Below, one piece after another: positions 2,323-12,864 of a DNA stretch of 25,699 nt (position 1 is its first letter; each line of letters opens with the position of its first letter). The stretch is from an uncultured Sphingomonadaceae bacterium. Its GTDB lineage: Bacteria; Pseudomonadota; Alphaproteobacteria; Sphingomonadales; Sphingomonadaceae. Below the pieces are notes generated by a model. It saw only the letters and a list, made by a program, of their open reading frames with translations, was not told where the DNA came from and searched no databases. Where the stretch lies: assembly GCA_964422665.1 (NCBI GenBank), contig CAYRCH010000001.1, forward strand, positions 26,855-52,553, in the 5' to 3' direction. Position numbers and translations under genes: made by a program.

Positions 2323-2754
2323 TTAGCTGAGCGCGTCGCGAAGTCGAGCGATCAGACCGGCGCCCTTGCGGGAGCGGATCGCGTCCACCAGCTTGGCCGG
2401 ATCGTAAGGCTTCTCGAAAATCGGTCCAAGCGCGGCGATGTCTTCAGGTATGTCGTCGGGCGCGCCGGTCGAAAACACGATCTGCACATTGCGCAGGCCG
2501 AGCTGCGGAATCAGTTCGGCAAGCGCCCAGCCATCGTCGGCATCGGACAGGTGGACGTCGAGGACGACCGTATCGGGCTTTTCGTTTTCCAGCGCGGCCA
2601 TTGTACGGGCGACAGTCGCGCACCAGCTCACGCGTTCGGCCCCCGCATCCTTCAGCGCGTCTTCCAGCGCCATTGCGAGCAACGCGTCATCTTCTACCAG
2701 CAATACATGCCCGATTCGGCCTGCCGCGCTGGCTCGTTTCCCTGTTTCGGCCAT
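2323..2754 (-). CDS. Single-domain response regulator (receiver), FATGUY-like, GSR-associated
   Basis: Receiver motifs LLVEDD, VVLDVHL (phospho-Asp), VFSTGAP (variant of FATGY) and EKPY; no output domain. Confidence 0.85.
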   Translation of the reverse strand: MAETGKRASAAGRIGHVLLVEDDALLAMALEDALKDAGAERVSWCATVARTMAALENEKPDTVVLDVHLSDADDGWALAELIPQLGLRNVQIVFSTGAPDDIPEDIAALGPIFEKPYDPAKLVDAIRSRKGAGLIARLRDALS

Positions 2755-2830
2755 GAAATATATTCCGAATAGTCCTGTCGTCGCGCAGTTTGGCCGAATT
2801 TGGCAGCGTGCATAATCCTGCTGCGACCCT

Positions 2831-2856
2831 AACGCAGATCAATTGGCGCAGGTTCC
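2831..2856 (-). promoter_or_regulatory. sigma-EcfG-type promoter for the single-domain receiver gene
   Basis: The minus strand reads GGAAC-N17-CGTT (plus strand AACG 2831-2834, GTTCC 2852-2856), 77 nt upstream of ATG 2754. Confidence 0.75.
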
Positions 2857-2858
2857 CG

Positions 2859-4046
2859 CTATTGCGCCGGTTCGGGCCTGTCCTGCGCCAGGATCGATTT
2901 ATGGTAGATAACGTATTCCTTGTTAATCGAGCTTTCGATCGCGTCGGCAATGGCCACCATTCCGCGATTGTCATCGAGGATCCAGCCGATCTCGCCACGC
3001 GTGGCGCCGAAATGCTCCACTGCATTCAGGCGGATCCGTTCGATCATCATGAAGGCGAGCTGGCTTGCCATGCGTGAGCTCTGAAGCCGCTGGACAACAC
3101 CCATCAATGGCACGCGCATGGTGGTCACACGCGGGCGCCACAGCCACCATAACAGTCGCGCCCAGCCGAAGGGGAACAACCGCCCCCGTATGGCCGCGAT
3201 CGGCTCGTTCAGGTTCGGCAGCGTCATCATGAAGGCCACAGGCTCACCATCGAGTTCGGCAATCATGTTGAGCCGGTTATGGATCAGCGGTTTCAGCTTC
3301 TTGCCGGCATAGGCGATTTCGGAATCGGTCAGCGGCACGAATCCCCAATTGCCCGACCATGCGTCGTTGAAGATCGCCATGATCGTGGCCGCCTCCTCGG
3401 CGAACCGGCTCTTGTCCACAGGGCGGACATTGATCCGGCTGTTCTTCTCACCGGAAGCGATGATCCGCTGGATCAGGGGCGGAAAGCCTTGCGTCACGTC
3501 GAGCTCGTAGGTGTAGAGGTGCTTGGCCGCGGCATAGCCGGTGCTCTCGATCCATTCCTGGAATTGCGGCGGGTGGTGACCCATCATTACCGCGGGCGGA
3601 TGGTCGTGCCCGCGAACCAGCAGGCCGGGTTCCTCCCACACCGACAGGCTGATCGGCGCCAGAACCCTGGTCATGCCCCTGCCGCGCAGCCATTCCTCCG
3701 CCGCTGCGATCAGCGCCTGGGCGGTTTCCCGGTCCTCGGCTTCCAGCAGGCCCCAATTGCCCGTCCCCGGCCCCATGCCCTGCTCGGGCGGCATTTCCAG
3801 TGCCAGCCTGTCGAAATGGGCCGATATGCGCCCCACTGCCTTGCCGTCGCGGCGCGCGAGGAACAGCTGCATTTCGGCATGCTCGTGGAACGGGTTGCGC
3901 CCGGGTGTCAGCAGTTCGACGACTTCCGAGCGGAGCGGCGGCACCCAGTTTGGGTCGCTGTCGTTCAGTCGATAAGCGAGATCGATAAATGCATTGAAAT
4001 CCGCCTTGTCCGCCACCCGGGCGATGCTTATCTGGCTATGCGTCAC
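2859..4046 (-). CDS. GNAT-fold N-acyltransferase (YghO-like); putative bacterial ceramide synthase
   Basis: Family motifs DPNWVPPL, FLARRDGKAVGRISA, GWILDDN. GTG start at 4046 with GGAAGG RBS; the track extends the ORF to 4169. The ceramide synthase call rests on family plus lptFG neighbourhood and is inference. Confidence 0.75.
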   Translation of the reverse strand: MTHSQISIARVADKADFNAFIDLAYRLNDSDPNWVPPLRSEVVELLTPGRNPFHEHAEMQLFLARRDGKAVGRISAHFDRLALEMPPEQGMGPGTGNWGLLEAEDRETAQALIAAAEEWLRGRGMTRVLAPISLSVWEEPGLLVRGHDHPPAVMMGHHPPQFQEWIESTGYAAAKHLYTYELDVTQGFPPLIQRIIASGEKNSRINVRPVDKSRFAEEAATIMAIFNDAWSGNWGFVPLTDSEIAYAGKKLKPLIHNRLNMIAELDGEPVAFMMTLPNLNEPIAAIRGRLFPFGWARLLWWLWRPRVTTMRVPLMGVVQRLQSSRMASQLAFMMIERIRLNAVEHFGATRGEIGWILDDNRGMVAIADAIESSINKEYVIYHKSILAQDRPEPAQ

Positions 4047-4180
4047 AAATCCCGCCTTCCAAGAGACCGGTCCTCGCCCTGCCTGTGGCTCTCGCCGATT
4101 GTCAAGGCGGGCTGGGCACAGAGGCGGCCCGATGGTAAGGCGGGGCAAACCGGCCCGGGCAGGGCGCATGAGACAAGGCG

Positions 4181-5269
4181 ATGACTGCGCAGCAGACGAT
4201 CGATATCCCCGCGGCTACACCGGCCCGAACGGTCGGAAAGCTCGCGATCCCCGACGATAAGGCCATGCTGCGCGCCGCGGTCGATCTCACCCGCGACATT
4301 GCCGAGGCGAAGCCGGGGATCTACTGGCCGGACATGCTCCTTTCTGCGGGAGCGGGTTATGCCGCGCTGGCGGGCGCAATCCTGCTTGACAGCACGCTTC
4401 TGGCCGTAGCCTGCGGCGTGGTCGCGGTGCTCGCACTTTATCGCGCGCTGCTGTTCATCCATGAACTGACCCACATCCACCGCAATGCCCTGCCGGGCTT
4501 CCGGACCGCATGGAACCTGCTGGTCGGCATCCCGATGCTGACGCCCTCCTTCATGTATGAGGGCGTCCACACGCTGCATCACAAGCGCACGCAATATGGC
4601 ACGGCGGACGATCCGGAATATCTGCCGCTGGCGCTGATGAAGCCCTGGTCGCTTCCGGCCTTCATCCTGATTTCCCTGCTGGCCCCGCCTGCGCTTCTGA
4701 TCCGCTTTGCGATCCTCAACCCGCTCAGCCTGGCCATTCCGCCGCTGCGCAGGCTGGTATGGGAGAGGGCATCGTCGCTCTCCATCAATCCCGCCTTCCG
4801 CCGCCGCGCGCCGGAAGGCGAAATGAAGCGGCGCGTGATCTGGCAGGAAGCCGCCGGAACGGTATGGGCCCTGGCACTTCTGGCAAGCACCCAATTCGTC
4901 GGCTGGTACCCGCTGCTCGTCGCGCTGGCCGTGTTTTCCATCGTGGCAGTGCTCAATCAGCTGCGCACGCTCGTCGCCCATTTGTGGGAGAATGACGGTG
5001 AGCCGATGACTGTGACGGCGCAGTACCTCGATAGCGTCAATGTGCCGCCGCCGGGCCTGATGGCGGAGATCTGGGCGCCGGTCGGGCTGCGCTATCACGC
5101 GCTTCACCACCTGATGCCATCCATGCCGTATCATTCGCTGCCCGAGGCCCATCGCCGCCTGCGCAAGGCCCTGGAGGCGGGAACGACGTTCGACGGTGCC
5201 AATCATGCGGGTATGTGGGTGCTGGTCGTGCGGATCGCGCGCAGCACCATGGTGAAGCGCCGGGCCTGA
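4181..5269 (+). CDS. Membrane fatty acid desaturase/hydroxylase family protein
   Basis: Three His boxes (HELTH, HTLHH, HALHH) and several hydrophobic segments. Confidence 0.85.
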   Translation: MTAQQTIDIPAATPARTVGKLAIPDDKAMLRAAVDLTRDIAEAKPGIYWPDMLLSAGAGYAALAGAILLDSTLLAVACGVVAVLALYRALLFIHELTHIHRNALPGFRTAWNLLVGIPMLTPSFMYEGVHTLHHKRTQYGTADDPEYLPLALMKPWSLPAFILISLLAPPALLIRFAILNPLSLAIPPLRRLVWERASSLSINPAFRRRAPEGEMKRRVIWQEAAGTVWALALLASTQFVGWYPLLVALAVFSIVAVLNQLRTLVAHLWENDGEPMTVTAQYLDSVNVPPPGLMAEIWAPVGLRYHALHHLMPSMPYHSLPEAHRRLRKALEAGTTFDGANHAGMWVLVVRIARSTMVKRRA

Positions 5270-5303
5270 AAACGAAACGGTCCCGCGCCGGAGCGCAGGA
5301 CCG
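5270..5303 (-). terminator. Probable terminator between the convergent desaturase and lipoprotein genes
   Basis: CGGTCC 5278-5283 pairs with GGACCG 5298-5303, with an inner GCGC/GCGC stem. The minus strand continues TTTCGTTTT. Confidence 0.5.
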
Positions 5304-5343
5304 CGAGGGGGCGCTGCAATCGCGCCATTCGTCTTCCGACTGC

Positions 5344-5613
5344 TTACTCGGTTTCCACGGTCATCGACGGATTGTCGTCGACATCGGCCGTGACGCTGGT
5401 GTTGCCGTCGTTGATCCGGGCATCGATCCCGTCCTCGCCGATCGTGACTCTGTCGCCGGTTTCTTCTGCCGGCATTGCGTCCACCGGATCCATGGATTCC
5501 ATGGCGGTATCGGACATCATTTGATCCTCGGCATGGACCGGTTCGGATTGTTCGCAGGCGGCAAGAGCGAGAAGAGCAGTGCCTGAAAGAGCGGCGAGGG
5601 CAAGCTTGTTCAT
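5344..5613 (-). CDS. Small acidic lipoprotein of unknown function (89 aa)
   Basis: ATG 5613 with GGAG RBS; signal peptide MNKLALAALSGTALLALAA|C with lipobox LAAC; Asp/Glu-rich mature part. Confidence 0.8.
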   Translation of the reverse strand: MNKLALAALSGTALLALAACEQSEPVHAEDQMMSDTAMESMDPVDAMPAEETGDRVTIGEDGIDARINDGNTSVTADVDDNPSMTVETE

Positions 5614-5682
5614 TGCGATTCTCCGTTTCGGAAATGTTGGCAATGAAGACTCCTGCCTCGCGTCAAAGTTCCGAAATCGCGA

Positions 5683-6780
5683 CTATTCCTCGGTTCGGAC
5701 CAGCACGGTCTCGCCTAGCAGGAGGAACAGGAAGAACGGCCCCCAGGCGGCCAGGAACGGCGGATAGCCGCCGAAATTCCCCATCGCCAATGCGGCATTC
5801 TCGATCACGAAATAGGCGAAGCCGAGGCTCATACCGATGACCGCGCGGAGGAAGAGCTGGCCGGAACGCGCGAGGCCGAATGCCGCGACCGATCCCAGCA
5901 GAGGCATCAGCACGGCCGCCAGCGGGCCGGAAATCTTGTGCCACCACTTGGCCTTCAGCTCCGCGGTCCGCCTACCGGCAGCTTCGAGCGCGCTGATCGA
6001 ATCCGCCAGTTCGAGCAGCGTCTGTGAATCCCCATCGACTCCGCCGATATCGACCTGGTCCGGCGCGAGCCCGGTTGCCACCACGATATCCCCGCCTTCG
6101 CGCGTGGTGGCCGAACGCACTTCGAAGATCCGCGTATCTTCGAGCTTCCAGCCGGGTCCGGCGAAGGTTGCGCGCGGCGCCCGCAATTCCTCGACGATGG
6201 CCGCTTCCGGATTGCGGCGGTAATAGGTCACGCCGCTCATCTGCAGCGCATCACCGCGTCCGCTGAGCAACTGGGCGGTCAGTATGTCACCGTCGACTTC
6301 GAAATAGACGTTGGTCCGGACCGCGGGATCGTCGGGGATGGGGCCGAATTCCGCTGCCGACCAGGCGTTCAGCGTCGCATTGGCGCGGGTCACCACGGTT
6401 TCGTTGAAGGTAAAGCTGATCAGCGCGACGACGCCGGCGGTGAGGATCAGCGGCGCCAGCACCTGGTGCGCCGACATGCCCGCCGCTTTCATCGAGACGA
6501 CTTCGCTGTTCTGGTTGAGTGTTGCCAAGGTGATGATCGTCGCCAGCAATACCGAATAGGGCAAGAACCGCTGCACCAGCTGGGGCACGCGCAGCGAGAC
6601 ATAGGTCCACAGCTCGGCTTCCCCGTTGCCGGGATAGCGCAGGATCTTGCCGCTCTGTGAAAGCAGGTCGAGCATCTGCAGGATCAGCACCAGCATCACC
6701 AGCACCGCCAGGATCCTGACGATGAACATCTTGCCGAGATAAAGGGTGAGTGTCCGCGAAGGGAGGAAATCAAGCCGCAT
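5683..6780 (-). CDS. lptG: LptG (YjgP/YjgQ family) lipid export ABC permease
   Basis: LptF/G topology (3 TM, periplasmic domain, 3 TM) with LNQNSEVVSMKAAGMS and PPFLAAWGP motifs; overlaps the end of lptF by 11 nt. Confidence 0.9.
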   Translation of the reverse strand: MRLDFLPSRTLTLYLGKMFIVRILAVLVMLVLILQMLDLLSQSGKILRYPGNGEAELWTYVSLRVPQLVQRFLPYSVLLATIITLATLNQNSEVVSMKAAGMSAHQVLAPLILTAGVVALISFTFNETVVTRANATLNAWSAAEFGPIPDDPAVRTNVYFEVDGDILTAQLLSGRGDALQMSGVTYYRRNPEAAIVEELRAPRATFAGPGWKLEDTRIFEVRSATTREGGDIVVATGLAPDQVDIGGVDGDSQTLLELADSISALEAAGRRTAELKAKWWHKISGPLAAVLMPLLGSVAAFGLARSGQLFLRAVIGMSLGFAYFVIENAALAMGNFGGYPPFLAAWGPFFLFLLLGETVLVRTEE

Positions 6781-8011
6781 CGGCGGTGCTCACCTCCATG
6801 CGCCGCAGCTGTTCCGACCGTATCCGGCGGCGGGTCAGAGCGCGAAGCTTCTTCGAGAGCTTGGCGAAGAGAGATTCGAGGGCGCCGATCGCCTGGGCGC
6901 CGGGCACATGGGCGGTGCGGTAATACATCCAGCCGATGATCGCGGCGAAGATGAAGAACGGCCCCCACAATGCAAGGAACGGGTCAATCCGGCCGATGCT
7001 GGCGACGCCCTGCCCGTATTCGTTCACCTTGTGATAGGCGACCACCATCACGATCGAGACGAAAACGCCGAGCGAGGAGGTCGATCGCTTCGGCGGGATC
7101 GCGAGCGAGACCGCCAGCAGCGGCAGCATCACCATCATGATCACCTCGACCATCCGGAAGTTGAAGCGCGCCTGGCTGGTCAGCCGCTCCTCCTCGGTCG
7201 ATGTCTCGCTCCATCCGATCCGCAGCAGTTCGGGCAGGATATATTCCTTGCCTTCCTCCGCGCCGCGCTCGCGGAACCGGTCCACCGCCGGCAGGTCGAT
7301 CGGCAGGTCGTGCTGGCTGAAGGAGAGGACGCGGGGCGTGATCCCGGCCGTGTCCTGCACAATGGTTCCGTCGCGCAGCCGAAGGATGATGGTGTTGCGG
7401 TTTTCCCTGCTCGCCAGGAAACGTCCTTCGGCCGCGGAAATCGACAGCACCTGTCCCTGGTCATCGGAAACCCGCGCGAATATGCCGATCAGTTCGCGCC
7501 CGTCGTCGCGGCTTTCCTCGATCCGCAGCGCCATCCGGTCCTGCAGCGTGGTGAATTCGCCGACCTTGATCGAGGCGCCCAGTGCGCCCGACTGCAATTC
7601 ATATTGCAGCTGCTCGTAATAATAGTGGGACAGGGGCTGGAGATAGCCCACGATCGCGAAATTGATCGCCATCATCACGCCCGTGATCATGTAGGGCACG
7701 CGCAGCAGCCGCCCGTAGCCGAGCCCAACCGCCCGCAGCACGTCGAGCTCGCTTGAAACGGCAAGCTTGCGGAAAGCGAGGAGGATTCCCAGCATCACGC
7801 CGAGCGGTATGGCGAGGCTCGCATATTCGGGAAGCAGGTTGGCCAGCATCTGGAACACCACGCCGATCGGCCCGCCCTCGGTCGCCACGAAGTCGAACAG
7901 CTTGAGCATCTTGTCGAGCAGCAGCAGCGACGCGGCGATCACGAAGACCGCGATCATCGGCACCAGCGTCAGCCGGAAAATGTATCGATCGATGGCGGTA
8001 ATCTTGAACAC
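6770..8011 (-). CDS. lptF: LptF (YjgP/YjgQ family) lipid export ABC permease
   Basis: IDRYIFR start, LAVSSELDVLRAVGLG motif, C-terminal TM bundle; GTG start at 8011. Confidence 0.9.
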   Translation of the reverse strand: MFKITAIDRYIFRLTLVPMIAVFVIAASLLLLDKMLKLFDFVATEGGPIGVVFQMLANLLPEYASLAIPLGVMLGILLAFRKLAVSSELDVLRAVGLGYGRLLRVPYMITGVMMAINFAIVGYLQPLSHYYYEQLQYELQSGALGASIKVGEFTTLQDRMALRIEESRDDGRELIGIFARVSDDQGQVLSISAAEGRFLASRENRNTIILRLRDGTIVQDTAGITPRVLSFSQHDLPIDLPAVDRFRERGAEEGKEYILPELLRIGWSETSTEEERLTSQARFNFRMVEVIMMVMLPLLAVSLAIPPKRSTSSLGVFVSIVMVVAYHKVNEYGQGVASIGRIDPFLALWGPFFIFAAIIGWMYYRTAHVPGAQAIGALESLFAKLSKKLRALTRRRIRSEQLRRMEVSTADAA

Positions 8012-8153
8012 GGATGCGGATCGGCCTCGTCTTGCCGCGTCTCCATAACTGGCCCGCTGGCAGGGCGAAAGGGCGAATGCGCCCTGCGTCTCAGGGGAGT
8101 CAGGGCCGGCTCAGTGGAACTGGAGAGCCTATCGGGCCGATGGCCGGGGCGGT

Positions 8154-8561
8154 TCAGGCCTTCTCCAGCGTGCATTGCAGCGGGTGCTGGTTCTCCCGCG
8201 CGTAATCCATCACCTGGTTCACCTTGGTCTCGGCAACCTCGTAGGGAAACACGCCGCATACGCCCACACCGCGCTGGTGGACGTGGAGCATGACCCGCGT
8301 CGCCTGCTCCATGTCCATCCGGAAGAAGCGCTTGAGGACCATCACCACGAATTCCATGGGCGTGTAGTCGTCATTGAGCAGCAGCACCTTGTACTGGCTC
8401 GGCTTCTTGGGGCGTGCGCGCGTCTTCGTCGCCAGGCCGAGCTGGCCTTCGCCTTCATCGCCGTGATGGTCGGGCGGCGAATCCTCGCCCGGGCCGCTGC
8501 CGATGGTCAGCAGTGCCTCTTCAGGCTCGGGCCTGATGGACGAAGGGCGATCTTGATCCAT
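8154..8561 (-). CDS. clpS: ATP-dependent Clp protease adaptor ClpS
   Basis: [17 protein letters not shown]...[24 protein letters not shown]...HPLQCTLEK. The start codon is uncertain (ATG 8561 chosen). Confidence 0.93.
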
Positions 8562-8642
8562 GCGCGGCTGAATATCGTGAATCGCCGCGAAACCGCAAGA
8601 TGCGCACGGCAAATTGAGGGTTAATGCGGGTCCGGAAACCAA

Positions 8643-8677
8643 ACGGGCCGCCCGGCGCAAAAAGCGGGGCGGCCCGT
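8643..8677 (-). terminator. GC-rich hairpin downstream of the phasin gene
   Basis: ACGGGCCGCCC 8643-8653 pairs with GGGCGGCCCGT 8667-8677; the U-tail is weak. Confidence 0.5.
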
Positions 8678-8733
8678 CGGTTGGCCGAGGAGGGGGGAGA
8701 GGAGTCCCTGCGTCGGCCGAAATCGTGCCCCGA

Positions 8734-9462
8734 TCAGGCGGCCTTGGAGATCTTCTCCGCGGCCACGCTCATGCGGCTGGAAATCGGGGCGAAGCTTTCA
8801 TTGGCGAGCTTCAGCATCGATTCGGTTTGCTTGGAGCTGAAAGCCACCATCGCGTCGAAATTGCGGCGTGCGAGCTTGCCTTGCAGCTGGAACAGCTCGC
8901 TCGGGCTCTTGACCGCGGTCACTTCCTTGAGATCGCCGGTCACGGTCTCGTAAGCGGACTTGGCGTCTTCGACATAGGTCTTGCCCATGTTCTGCATGCC
9001 GGCGGCAAGCAGCTTCCCGGCCTCGACCATGGCTTCGACATTGCCCTTGGCAAAGTCGGACATTTCGCCGGTGATCTCGGAGGATTTTTCGTAGGCAGTC
9101 TGAGCGCGCGACTGCATGTCGCTCATCATATCGCTCAGGGTCTTGGTGAAATCCGTGCTCTTGGAACTCGCCATGATTTTTTCCTTTAACTGTGTAATTG
9201 TGGGCTGGGCCGGCGGGGCCTGAGGGGTGAGAGCTTTCTTGGGCTTCGGTGCCGGCTTTGCTGAAACCTTGCTGCTGCTGGTCGTTTTCTTGGTCTTCTT
9301 CGACTTGGGCGCGGGCTTGACGACTGGCTTGGGCATGGCTTCTTGCGCCGCTACCTTGTCCTTCGCACTGGCCTGCGCCGGTGCGGCCGGCTTGGCCTGT
9401 GCAGATGCTTCTGCGTAGGCTTTCTCGGCGGAATCGGTGCCCTTGTCGGCAGCCTCGGCCAT
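8734..9462 (-). CDS. phaP: Phasin (PHA granule protein) with a 96-aa Ala/Lys/Pro-rich N-terminal extension
   Basis: C-terminal helical phasin-like domain ([14 protein letters not shown]...[20 protein letters not shown]), adjacent to phaC. GAGGA RBS before ATG 9462; second in-frame ATG at 9174 with AAAGGA RBS. Confidence 0.85.
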
Positions 9463-9498
9463 TTCGTTCCTCGCTTTCGCCCGTAACCGTTACGGGTA

Positions 9499-9563
9499 TG
9501 TTGCAGTGCACAAAATAGTGAAGCTGGTCACCGAGTCAAGGATTTTTGTGCAGCGCACAAAAA
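9499..9563. promoter_or_regulatory. Two PhaR-like operator boxes upstream of the phasin gene
   Basis: TGTTGCAGTGCACAAAA at 9499-9515 and the palindrome TTTTTGTGC-AGC-GCACAAAAA at 9543-9563. Both contain TGC-N3-GCA, the type of motif bound by alphaproteobacterial PhaR. Confidence 0.7.
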
Positions 9564-9600
9564 TTTCAACGAATACCGGTTTTCGTGCAAGGCGGCGCAA

Positions 9601-11502
9601 TCACCGCATCGCGACATAGCGGCCGGGTGCGTCCTCGATCACCTTGTCGCCCCGTCCGCCGGGCCTGCGCTTGCCCTTAGCGGGCACTTTGCCGGGCGCT
9701 TGCCTGGCGAGCCATTTGGCCCAGTCCGGCCACCAGCTTCCGGGATGTTCCTTCGCACCGGCGAGAAAGTCCTCGATACTGTGAGCGGTTTTGGCGCTGG
9801 TCCAGTACTGGTATTTGTGGGCCGCGGGCGGATTCACCACTCCCGCAATATGGCCCGAGCCGGCCAGCACGAACCGGACCGGGCCTGACACGATGTCCTT
9901 CAGACGAAACACGCTTTCGGGCGGCGCGATATGATCCTCTCGCCCGGCCTGGATATAGCAGGGCGTTTCGATCAGCCGCAGGTCGATCGCCGTTCCGTCC
10001 ACGCTCAGCGCATCGGGCTGCACCAGCAAATTGTCCCGGTAGAGGTCGCGCAGATAGGCCTGGTGCCATGCGGCGGGGAGGTTGGTGACGTCGCTGTTCC
10101 AGTGCAGCAGGTCGAAGGCCGGATAGTCCTCGCCCAGCAGGTAGTTGTTGACGACGTAGTTCCAGATCAGGTCGCTGCCGCGCAGCAGATTGAAAGTCGC
10201 GGCCATGTAGCGCCCGTCCAGATAGCCGCCCTGGCTGGCCTGCCGGACCATTTCCAGCTTGGCGTCGTCGATGAAGAATTTGAGCTCGCCCGCATGCCGG
10301 AAATCCACCTGCGCGGTGAAGAATGTGGCGCTCTTCACCCGGTCCGCTTCGCCGCGCCGGGCGAGCACCGCCAGTGTGGCAGCCAGCGTCGTTCCCGCAA
10401 CGCAATAGCCGATCGCGTGTACGGCCGGGACCTTGAGCCGATCACGCACATGGTTGATCGCCTCGATCTGGGCGCCGACATAGTCGTCCCAGGTGACATC
10501 GGCCAGGCTCTCGTCGGCGGACCGCCAGCTGACCATGAACACGGTAATCCCGTGGTCGACTGCCCATTTGACGAAGCTTTTCTTCGGGCTGAGGTCGAGG
10601 ATGTAAAAGCGGTTGATCCAGGGCGGAAAGATCACCAGCGGAACTTCCAGCACCTCCTCGGTGGAAGGGCTATACTGGATCAGCTGGAACAGCCGTGTTT
10701 CGAATACCACCTTGCCGGGTGTGGTGGCGAGGTTCCTGCCAAGCTGGAAGGCGTCTTCCTGCGTATGGGTCAGCTGCCCTTTCTCAAGGTCGTGCGCGAG
10801 CCGTTCCATGCCTTTGACGAGGTTCTGGCCATGGCTCTCGATGGTCTTCTCGAGCACCAGCGGATTGGTGAGCGGGAAGTTGGCGGGGCTCGCTGCCTCG
10901 ATGGCAGTGCGGGTGGCGAAGCGCAGGCTCTCACGCTGGTCTTCGTCGAGGCCTTCCAGTTCGTCGACCATCGCCTGCAGGCGCTCGGCCATCAGCAGGT
11001 AGGTCTGGTGGATCAGGGCGAAAACCGGCTGTTCGCGCCAGGCGGGATCGGCGAAGCGGCGGTCGGTGCGGGGCAGTTTCGGTTCCGCCGGCGCACCCTC
11101 CTTTGCCTTCGGCCCGATTCCATACTGGCCCAGCACTTCTTCCCAGAGCTCGTATCCCTCGCGCCAAAGCTCCTGTTGGCGGACAGGATCGGTCAGCGGC
11201 AGTTGTTTCTGCCAAGCCTGCATCATCTCCAGCCATTGCGTGGGGTCGGCCAGCAGAGGCAGTTCGAGTTTGCCGAGCTGCTGCTGGGTGAGGAACTCGC
11301 CCCACATCTCTTGCATCCGGGCGGCCGCGCTGTTCCATTCGCCCAACGCCTCGGTGGCGTCGTCCCCTTCTTCCGCTGCTTGCGCCGCGCAGCCCAGCAC
11401 GCCTTCGAAGGCAGCGCGCGCGGCATCGCTCTGCAGCTGGAGCATCTCGGCGAATATCTCGCCCGCGTCCTGCGCTCCCTTGTCGGTCCCGGTTTTGGCC
11501 AT
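9601..11502 (-). CDS. phaC: Class I poly(3-hydroxyalkanoate) synthase
   Basis: PPWINRFYILDL, lipase box GYCVAG, EDHIAP and GSGHIAG catalytic motifs, GSWWPDW; 633 aa. Confidence 0.97.
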   Translation of the reverse strand: MAKTGTDKGAQDAGEIFAEMLQLQSDAARAAFEGVLGCAAQAAEEGDDATEALGEWNSAAARMQEMWGEFLTQQQLGKLELPLLADPTQWLEMMQAWQKQLPLTDPVRQQELWREGYELWEEVLGQYGIGPKAKEGAPAEPKLPRTDRRFADPAWREQPVFALIHQTYLLMAERLQAMVDELEGLDEDQRESLRFATRTAIEAASPANFPLTNPLVLEKTIESHGQNLVKGMERLAHDLEKGQLTHTQEDAFQLGRNLATTPGKVVFETRLFQLIQYSPSTEEVLEVPLVIFPPWINRFYILDLSPKKSFVKWAVDHGITVFMVSWRSADESLADVTWDDYVGAQIEAINHVRDRLKVPAVHAIGYCVAGTTLAATLAVLARRGEADRVKSATFFTAQVDFRHAGELKFFIDDAKLEMVRQASQGGYLDGRYMAATFNLLRGSDLIWNYVVNNYLLGEDYPAFDLLHWNSDVTNLPAAWHQAYLRDLYRDNLLVQPDALSVDGTAIDLRLIETPCYIQAGREDHIAPPESVFRLKDIVSGPVRFVLAGSGHIAGVVNPPAAHKYQYWTSAKTAHSIEDFLAGAKEHPGSWWPDWAKWLARQAPGKVPAKGKRRPGGRGDKVIEDAPGRYVAMR

Positions 11503-11664
11503 GATGGTTCACTAGCGAACGAGTATTACGATTGGGAACAAGTTTTGCGTTCCAGTGCCTTTCGTCGGCGCCGCCGCGGCGATAGCCATTGCGCGGCCGG
11601 GCTGATTCCGCCACTATCGGCGTCCCTGCGCGGCGCTGTTGCCGCGCTTTTTGGATATGAGGTC

Positions 11665-12864
11665 ATGGAAGACGATTTCTACCGCATCAAGCGACTGCCG
11701 CCCTACGTTATCGCCGAAGTCAATGCGATGCGGGCAGCGGCACGCGCGAGCGGCAGGGATATCGTCGACCTCGGAATGGGCAACCCGGACCTGCCTCCGC
11801 CGCAGCACGTGATCGACAAGCTGTGCGAAGTGGCGCAAAAGCCGGACGCGCACGGATATTCGCAGTCGAAGGGTATTCCCGGCCTGCGCAAGGCCCAGGC
11901 AGGGTACTACCAGCGGCGCTTCGGGGTGGAGCTCGATCCCGAGAGTGAGGTGGTGGTGACGCTCGGCTCCAAGGAAGGGCTGGCGACGCTCGCCACTGCG
12001 ATCACCGCGCCGGGCGATACCGTTCTGGCACCTAACCCCAGCTATCCGATCCATACGTTCGGTTTCATCATCGCCGGTGCCACAATCCGCGCCGTGCCGA
12101 CGACGCCGGACGCGCAATATTGGGATGCGCTGGAAAAGGCGATGCGCTTCACCTCGCCGCGGCCGACAGTATTGGTGGTCAATTACCCCTCCAATCCCAC
12201 AGCCGAGGTTGTGGATCTCGCCTTCTATCAGCGGCTGGTCGACTGGGCGAAGGAGAACAAGGTCTGGGTCCTCTCGGACCTGGCTTATTCGGAACTTTAT
12301 TATAACGGCCAGCCGACCCCCTCGATTCTACAGGCGAAGGGGGCGAAAGACGTCGCGATCGAATTTACGTCGCTCAGCAAGACCTTCTCCATGGCCGGAT
12401 GGCGGATCGGTTTCGCTGTCGGCAACAAGACGCTGATCTCGGCCCTGACCCGGGTGAAGAGCTATATCGATTATGGCGCCTTCACCCCGATCCAGGCGGC
12501 CGCCTGCGCGGCGCTCAACGGCCCGCAGGACATCGTCGAGAAGAATCGTGAACTCTATCACAAGCGCCGCGATGTGCTGGTCGAGGCGTTCGGACGGGCC
12601 GGATGGGAAATCCCCGCGCCGCCGGCATCAATGTTTGCCTGGGCGCCGCTGCCACCGGCCCTGAAGCACATGGGCAGTCTCGAATTCTCCAAGCAGCTTC
12701 TGACCCATGCCGACGTCGCGGTGGCGCCGGGGGTCGGCTATGGCGAAGACGGCGAAGGCTTCGTCCGCATTGCGATGGTGGAAAACGAGCAACGGCTCCG
12801 GCAGGCGGCGCGCAATGTAAAGCGCTACCTGACCTCCATGGGCGTCAACACCAACGCTGCGTGA
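11665..12864 (+). CDS. alaC: PLP-dependent class I/II aminotransferase, AlaC/YfdZ-like (often annotated LL-DAP aminotransferase)
   Basis: RIKRLPPYV, DLGMGNPD, GSKEG, NYPSNPT, DLAYSEL, SLSKTFSMAGWRIG (PLP Lys). True start is ATG 11665 with GAGG RBS; the track's 977-aa ORF adds an antisense-phaC shadow. Confidence 0.85.
   Translation: MEDDFYRIKRLPPYVIAEVNAMRAAARASGRDIVDLGMGNPDLPPPQHVIDKLCEVAQKPDAHGYSQSKGIPGLRKAQAGYYQRRFGVELDPESEVVVTLGSKEGLATLATAITAPGDTVLAPNPSYPIHTFGFIIAGATIRAVPTTPDAQYWDALEKAMRFTSPRPTVLVVNYPSNPTAEVVDLAFYQRLVDWAKENKVWVLSDLAYSELYYNGQPTPSILQAKGAKDVAIEFTSLSKTFSMAGWRIGFAVGNKTLISALTRVKSYIDYGAFTPIQAAACAALNGPQDIVEKNRELYHKRRDVLVEAFGRAGWEIPAPPASMFAWAPLPPALKHMGSLEFSKQLLTHADVAVAPGVGYGEDGEGFVRIAMVENEQRLRQAARNVKRYLTSMGVNTNAA

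Follow-up and report, generated by a model that had tools for sequence, protein, structure and literature searches.

Organization of the locus

A 25,699-nucleotide stretch of DNA (hereafter the window) from an uncultured Sphingomonadaceae bacterium carries, on its minus strand and within 5.2 kb, a gene for a YghO-like protein of the GNAT family (positions 2859-4046) and the genes for the paired permeases LptG (5683-6780) and LptF (6770-8011). The window corresponds to positions 26855-52553 of contig C1 of a 2.5-Mb metagenome-assembled genome (MAG) that consists of 308 contigs and is 83% complete. The two permease genes overlap by 11 nucleotides and lie 1.6 kb from the GNAT gene, and the interval between lptG and the GNAT gene is occupied by an opposite-strand gene, divergent from the GNAT gene, for a 362-amino acid member of the membrane di-iron desaturase/hydroxylase family (4181-5269, plus strand). 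Judged from sequence comparisons, the block probably represents the sphingomonad form of a published set of genes for the synthesis, modification and export of sphingolipids, here in an Erythrobacteraceae-like MAG that would be free of lipopolysaccharide (LPS).

The original prediction had placed a YghO-like GNAT gene and lptF-lptG on one strand within about 5 kb, and the profile matches described below bear this out. It had also pointed to a lack of lptA, lptB, lptC and LPS genes nearby; among the scanned open reading frames (ORFs) of the window, which are about 130 amino acids or longer, there are indeed no lptA/B/C/D/E or lpx genes.

A tandem-GNAT protein as a candidate ceramide synthase

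The GNAT ORF extends to position 4169, which would give a protein of 436 amino acids; because homologues run from 383 to 397 amino acids, this reading was dropped in favor of the start that yields 395. Homologues at about 70% identity are found in Tsuneonella, Novosphingobium and Altererythrobacter, which assigns the source bacterium to the Sphingomonadales, and the nearest named locus is that of an Alteraurantiacibacter MAG (83%). The match of the protein to the Pfam family PF00583 is weak (22 bits, residues 94-170) and no NCBIfam model matches it. The label 'YghO-like' is justified by 38% identity to YghO of Escherichia coli K-12 over 387 residues, that is, over the full length (E 3e-86). 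The AlphaFold2 model of the protein (pLDDT 88.5, pTM 0.86) has a tandem-GNAT fold with TM-scores of 0.6-0.7 to 7Q3A, 2WPW and MshD, and resembles MAB_4324, a clavulanate Orf and MshD. The 395-residue protein is predicted to be soluble, with no hydrophobic or transmembrane (TM) segment, which fits the cytoplasmic, peripheral location published for the bacterial ceramide synthase bCerS.

In a careful tree of GNAT sequences, the window protein falls inside a group of 21 sequences that is split from two divergent, unlinked homologues with support of 100/100. All members of this group are encoded beside spt and/or lptFG, the exception being the IS5-disrupted yghO of E. coli K-12. This grouping favors the original prediction, which had nominated the protein as a ceramide synthase. 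The association with spt extends beyond the tree: 12 of 20 loci sampled across the class have spt no more than 10 kb from the GNAT homologue, as do 22 of 62 loci in a survey of the Sphingomonadales (80 named loci, 70 with at least 5 kb and 62 with 10 kb of sequence upstream of the GNAT gene). In the distant families represented by genomes G013, G196, G074, G050 and G158 the two genes are direct neighbors. The GNAT gene is present in a single copy in its own genome, and the tandem-GNAT protein is a candidate for the ceramide synthase bCerS, as predicted from these comparisons.

Placement of LptF and LptG

Both permeases match PF03739 (LptF_LptG) over their full length, LptG (365 amino acids) with 230 bits and LptF (413 amino acids) with 196 bits. 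Against the models for the individual LPS exporter subunits, LptG scores 287 bits (TIGR04408, cut-off 240), and LptF, with 218 bits, falls just below the cut-off of 230 for TIGR04407. Quick trees of 53-55 LptF and LptG sequences, together with one careful LptF tree, resolve three groups in each paralogue; they hold no Caulobacter pair. An alphaproteobacterial LPS-type clade (100/99) is made up of sequences from LpxC-positive genomes only, and its members are never encoded near a GNAT gene. The second, here called type-2, holds the window pair and every GNAT-linked pair of LpxC-negative genomes, along with the second pairs linked to the GNAT gene in Lacibacterium, Niveispirillum and Constrictibacter, which are LpxC-positive; for LptF, the careful tree supports this clade with 96/100 and the quick trees with 99-100, and for LptG its support is 94-96 by the Shimodaira-Hasegawa-like approximate likelihood ratio test. 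The third clade comprises LptFG of E. coli K-12, the pair of the sphingolipid locus of uropathogenic E. coli (UPEC), and the GNAT-linked pairs of Aliidongia (G069, L064) and of genome G198 (L065).

Because of its placement in the type-2 clade, apart from the LPS-type clade, the window pair is taken to be of the sphingolipid-linked kind, in keeping with the original prediction, and a pair of the LPS type is absent from the genome. Sphingolipid-linked pairs seem to have arisen, or to have been transferred, more than once, since the pairs of UPEC, Aliidongia and G198 lie outside the type-2 clade.

The clades also differ in charged residues. In an alignment scan, the column of E. coli LptG K40, a residue that presumably contacts a phosphate of lipid A, is basic in 8/8 LPS-type sequences and in 0/16 type-2 sequences, the window protein having a glycine (G44) at this position. 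Basic residues conserved in type-2 sequences occur instead at the columns of LptG T18 and of LptF K30, A240 and R292. Two LpxC-negative genomes of the same genus, G025 and G205, carry a lone extra LptF-like gene that has no LptG partner (L062, G025:C2:2840341-2841411; and G205:C2:120047-120967), and these sequences branch inside the type-2 clade, beside the sphingomonad LptF.

Lipid A, sphingolipid and Lpt genes elsewhere in the genome

The genome encodes one LptF and one LptG, and searches for LpxC, LpxB, WaaA and LpxK in the 83%-complete MAG found none of the four, counts that the original prediction had singled out as informative. LpxC, WaaA and LpxK are likewise absent from two complete genomes of the same family, those of Sphingomonas sp. 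S1-29 (G295) and a Qipengyuania sp. (G146).

Genes for sphingolipid synthesis are found on other contigs. An Spt is encoded beside a small acyl carrier protein (ACP) on contig C78 and scores 688 bits to the Sphingomonas wittichii SPT (PDB 2X8U); a CerR-like protein is encoded on C54 and an AasR-like protein on C130. Counterparts of three proteins from the annotated UPEC sphingolipid locus (CerR-like, AasR-like and YghO) are thus present in the genome.

With regard to the remaining Lpt components, LptD and LptE are present, and a single protein scores above the cut-off of the LptB model TIGR04406 (357 bits, contig C57), the runner-up reaching 150 bits. At the lptB locus (C57 11896-13733), the downstream neighbor is rpoN, as is usual, and the upstream one is a gene for an inorganic pyrophosphatase rather than lptC-lptA. 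The ORFs upstream of lptB were considered as lptA and lptC and rejected, one being the pyrophosphatase and the other looking spurious.

Linkage and copy number across genomes

Of 301 alphaproteobacterial genomes sampled, 44 carry the GNAT family; 38 of these were examined besides the genome of the window after the five most divergent matches had been excluded. In 29 of the 38, spread over many GTDB families, the GNAT gene has an LptF/G gene no more than 10 kb away, and on this count the linkage between the GNAT gene and LptF/G is far beyond chance. Half of the 38 genomes (19) lack LpxC; a single LptFG pair is found in 18 of these, two of which also have the lone extra LptF described above, and one has none. 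Two pairs are found in 14 of the 19 GNAT-bearing genomes that are LpxC-positive. Within the LpxC-negative set, WaaA is missing in 18/19 genomes and LpxK in 17/19, and both proteins are present in 6/6 LpxC-positive controls.

Fifteen bCerS-bearing genomes from outside the family of the window, belonging to about 10 GTDB families, are without LpxC, WaaA and LpxK (G216, G041, G252, G086, G205, G025, G036, G213, G244, G074, G067, G124, G278, G084 and G111). Emcibacter, Dongia and Enhydrobacter are among them, the last of these (G074) being without any LptF/G. The loss of lipid A together with the possession of sphingolipid genes looks wider than the classical sphingomonads.

In the Sphingomonadales survey, 59 of 70 loci have a co-directional lptF-lptG whose lptG is no more than 3 kb from the GNAT gene, and the proteins of the window are 52-75% identical to those of the 59 loci that share this layout. 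A gene of the desaturase family on the opposite strand separates the GNAT gene from lptG at 51 of the 70. Directly upstream of lptF, the 62 loci with sufficient sequence have acp-spt in 22 cases and clpS in another 22; the window is of the clpS type.

The desaturase/hydroxylase-family gene

The protein encoded at 4181-5269 matches PF00487 with 99 bits, has several TM segments, and carries three histidine boxes (H94ELTH, H130TLHH and H306ALHH). An ORF on the other strand of this gene (4043-5206, minus) has no family match and was set aside as its shadow. Homologues of the desaturase-family protein (E <= 1e-20) are found in 11 of the 301 genomes, one of them that of the window, and the GNAT gene is present in each of the 11; in the distant genome G124 the homologue adjoins spt. 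Co-occurrence with bCerS and conserved position make the gene a candidate for a role in sphingolipid metabolism.

The glycosphingolipids of sphingomonads carry 2-hydroxymyristate. In Caulobacter, the DesA-family desaturase/hydroxylase CCNA_00202 has been reported to hydroxylate the amide-linked acyl chain of the sphingolipids. On the basis of these two observations, the best guess is that the window enzyme is a ceramide acyl hydroxylase, with a desaturase as the alternative.

Comparison with characterized systems

In Caulobacter, bCerS is CCNA_01212, and it is encoded next to LptG2 (CCNA_01213) and LptF2 (CCNA_01214) (Uchendu, Isom and Klein, bioRxiv 2026, 10.64898/2026.04.12.717747; Olea-Ozuna et al., PLoS Pathog 2024, PMC11324152), as stated in the original prediction. 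LptF2/G2 bind LptB, their role is supported by genetic and pull-down evidence, and lptF2/G2 can be deleted only when the synthesis of anionic sphingolipids is switched off (bioRxiv 10.64898/2026.04.12.717747). According to published genetics, the formation of dihydroceramide requires CC_1154. The window shares with the Caulobacter locus a GNAT ceramide synthase, here predicted, beside LptG-LptF, the lack of a dedicated LptB, and a proposed function in the extraction of sphingolipids from the inner membrane. Caulobacter differs in having LPS and a second, LPS-type LptFG pair, and in the presence of LptC2 and cpg genes in the locus, whereas the genome of the window has one pair, no lipid A genes, spt at another site, and a desaturase-family gene between the GNAT gene and lptG.

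A closer parallel in gene order is provided by Sphingomonas (Rhizorhabdus) wittichii RW1, which is LPS-free, has a sole LptFG pair, and shares the order lptF-lptG-[one gene]-GNAT. The published order is acp (Swit_3899), spt (Swit_3900), LptF (Swit_3905), LptG (Swit_3906), an unlisted gene (Swit_3907) and bCerS (Swit_3908), with acp-spt just upstream of lptF, where the window has clpS, phasin and phaC genes. Swit_3908 has a published identity of 45% to CC_1154, and Swit_3905 and Swit_3906 of 30% and 28% to CC_1156 and CC_1155. The Caulobacter preprint already points out that the sphingolipid region of S. wittichii harbors its sole LptFG, and that the Lpt system persists in Sphingomonas despite the lack of LPS (bioRxiv 10.64898/2026.04.12.717747). 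The link from the window protein to Caulobacter bCerS rests on the 45% identity between Swit_3908 and CC_1154 and on the identical gene order.

The UPEC locus (NZ_CP058596) encodes a yghQ-like flippase, lptF, lptG, spt, acp, an epimerase/dehydratase, a fatty acyl-AMP ligase and yghO, a set that matches the genes reported for ceramide synthesis in bacteria. The genome of the window has the same complement of gene functions, and the GNAT proteins are 38% identical over their full length. UPEC differs in that the LptF/G of the locus is a second pair (L158, UPEC_U013, 7316-9462) that falls into the clade of K-12 LptFG, and in that no desaturase is annotated.

Compared with the canonical LptB2FG exporter (E. 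coli b4261/b4262; PDB 6MIT), the window proteins belong to the same Pfam family and have the same six TM helices and periplasmic domain; the translational coupling of F and G and the presence of LptB, LptD and LptE in the genome are also shared. They differ in the lack of a lipid A pathway in the genome, in an LptF below the TIGR04407 cut-off, in membership of a separate clade, and in a glycine where LPS-type LptG has a basic residue (the K40 column).

Flanking genes and minor features

Between lptG and the desaturase-family gene lies a small ORF on the minus strand (5344-5613) for an acidic putative lipoprotein of 89 amino acids with a signal peptide ending in LAAC. Whether it is a real gene is uncertain: a Pfam scan gave no family, and the only match is to the nearest relative, L067 (79% over 38 amino acids). 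The ORF sits between lptG and a strong terminator-like hairpin on the minus strand (5277-5304; 12 pairs, 9 of them G-C, with a T-rich tail), which is downstream of both and just past the stop of the desaturase-family gene. In other relatives only a few bases separate lptG from the desaturase-family gene. A search for sigma-70-like promoters over positions 2700-8800 found none.

Beyond lptF, ClpS, a phasin and PhaC are encoded in that order, all on the minus strand, the phasin and class I polyhydroxyalkanoate synthase genes (8734-11502) lying directly upstream of clpS-lptF at the position that acp-spt and ceramide kinase genes hold in many sphingomonads. The next gene, at 11614-12864 on the plus strand, was considered as a candidate spt and ruled out, as its product resembles LL-diaminopimelate aminotransferase (734 bits); it is followed by metabolic genes, and there is no Spt in the window. 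On the other side of the GNAT gene, positions 1-2754 form a general-stress-response neighborhood with an HWE histidine kinase that has a CHASE domain (1-1155, plus), PhyR (1188-2054, minus) and a single-domain (REC) response regulator (2323-2754, minus). The order GNAT-REC-PhyR is found again at about 16 of the 80 Sphingomonadales loci.

Proposed pathway and alternatives

If the block functions in sphingolipid synthesis and export, Spt, encoded elsewhere with a dedicated ACP, would act with acyl-AcpR to make 3-ketosphinganine. The GNAT protein would then N-acylate the long-chain base at the cytoplasmic face, as suggested by orthology and linkage, and the lipid would be flipped, reduced by CerR, and decorated. 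The His-box enzyme would most likely hydroxylate, and less likely desaturate, the ceramide, and this is the weakest link of the scheme. LptF and LptG, which are translationally coupled, could assemble with the only LptB of the genome into an LptB2FG-type ABC extractor that, by analogy with Caulobacter LptF2/G2, would pull a (glyco)sphingolipid rather than LPS from the inner membrane, and the retained LptD and LptE would insert the lipid into the outer leaflet. The proposal that the LptFG pair may extract (glyco)sphingolipids was already part of the original prediction, and copy number, the absence of lipid A genes and the trees lend it support.

Several observations weigh against this scheme. 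The opposite-strand gene between them means that the GNAT gene and lptFG are separate transcription units and not one operon, and with spt, acp, cerR and aasR on other contigs, the block by itself does not amount to a complete pathway cluster. LptG scores above the equivalog cut-off for LPS-type LptG, and sequence by itself is no proof of a change in substrate. LptA and LptC were not found by PF06835 (LptC) or by PF03968 and TIGR03002 (LptA) in an assembly that is only 83% complete, the matches being confined to LptD and its N-terminal domain. The case for orthology to the Caulobacter proteins studied by experiment is indirect, and the published evidence for transport concerns Caulobacter ceramide phosphoglycerate, not glycosphingolipids.

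The score of LptG is also one of the points in favor of a reading in which the GNAT protein is bCerS and LptFG a broader extractor of another outer-leaflet lipid or lipids, sphingolipid being just one of its substrates or not a substrate at all, and the linkage reflecting co-regulation of envelope genes. The transport evidence for such a pair comes from Caulobacter and from no sphingomonad, the Enhydrobacter genome (G074) with bCerS and without LpxC or LptFG implies that producers can do without the pair, and other arrangements are found in Bacteroidetes and Myxococcus (bioRxiv 10.64898/2026.04.12.717747). Nevertheless, the linkage to bCerS and spt has been kept across many families, the type-2 pair is the only one retained upon loss of the lipid A genes, and the conditional deletion of lptF2/G2 in Caulobacter ties the pair to anionic sphingolipids; a broader extractor is therefore considered unlikely. 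Even less probable is that the pair is an ordinary LPS exporter that happens to lie beside an unrelated acetyltransferase. The full-length matches of both permeases to the LptF_LptG family would suit such an exporter, but with four lipid A genes missing here and LpxC, WaaA and LpxK missing in complete relatives, with the pair outside the LPS-type clade, and with the adjacency found again in 29 of 38 genomes, this explanation is effectively refuted.

It is also conceivable that the YghO-like GNAT protein is not a ceramide synthase and acylates another amine, be it an aminolipid, a polyamine or a small molecule. The weak Pfam match and the lack of an NCBIfam model leave room for this, and the names given to homologues in databases are conflicting ('dATP pyrophosphohydrolase', 'putative DNA-binding transcriptional regulator') or uninformative. 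The protein is, however, encoded in a single copy in a genome with an otherwise full set of ceramide genes, its homologues are direct neighbors of spt in several distant families, that of UPEC lies in a locus with spt, acp, reductase, ligase and lptFG, and the dependence of dihydroceramide on CC_1154 has been established by genetics. Another substrate is thus highly improbable, and a sphingolipid synthesis, modification and export block is the preferred reading.

Implications for sphingolipid export

Until recently it was unclear by what route sphingolipids travel to the outer membrane. The idea of export by LptFG is not new: the 2026 preprint states it for S. wittichii, papers of 2021-2024 had proposed it, and the window is one more instance of a known block that reveals no new principle. 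The additions made here are small, and consist of the co-inherited desaturase-family gene, the charge changes in the permeases, and the LPS-free lineages that keep only the type-2 pair. Together they raise the possibility, advanced tentatively, that type-2 LptFG forms a distinct, charge-shifted clade that serves as the sole pair in at least 11 LPS-free, bCerS-bearing GTDB families, Emcibacter and Dongia included, and that is joined in sphingomonads by a His-box enzyme.

The lack of any LPS for their single LptFG pair to handle makes LPS-free sphingomonads a natural test case for such questions. Work on the substrate selectivity of the Lpt system may benefit from the clade structure, from the survival of one pair after the loss of lipid A in many families, from the charge differences and from the desaturase-family gene, and if the charge swaps set the choice of substrate, they would offer a direct handle on how Lpt was retargeted from LPS to sphingolipid.

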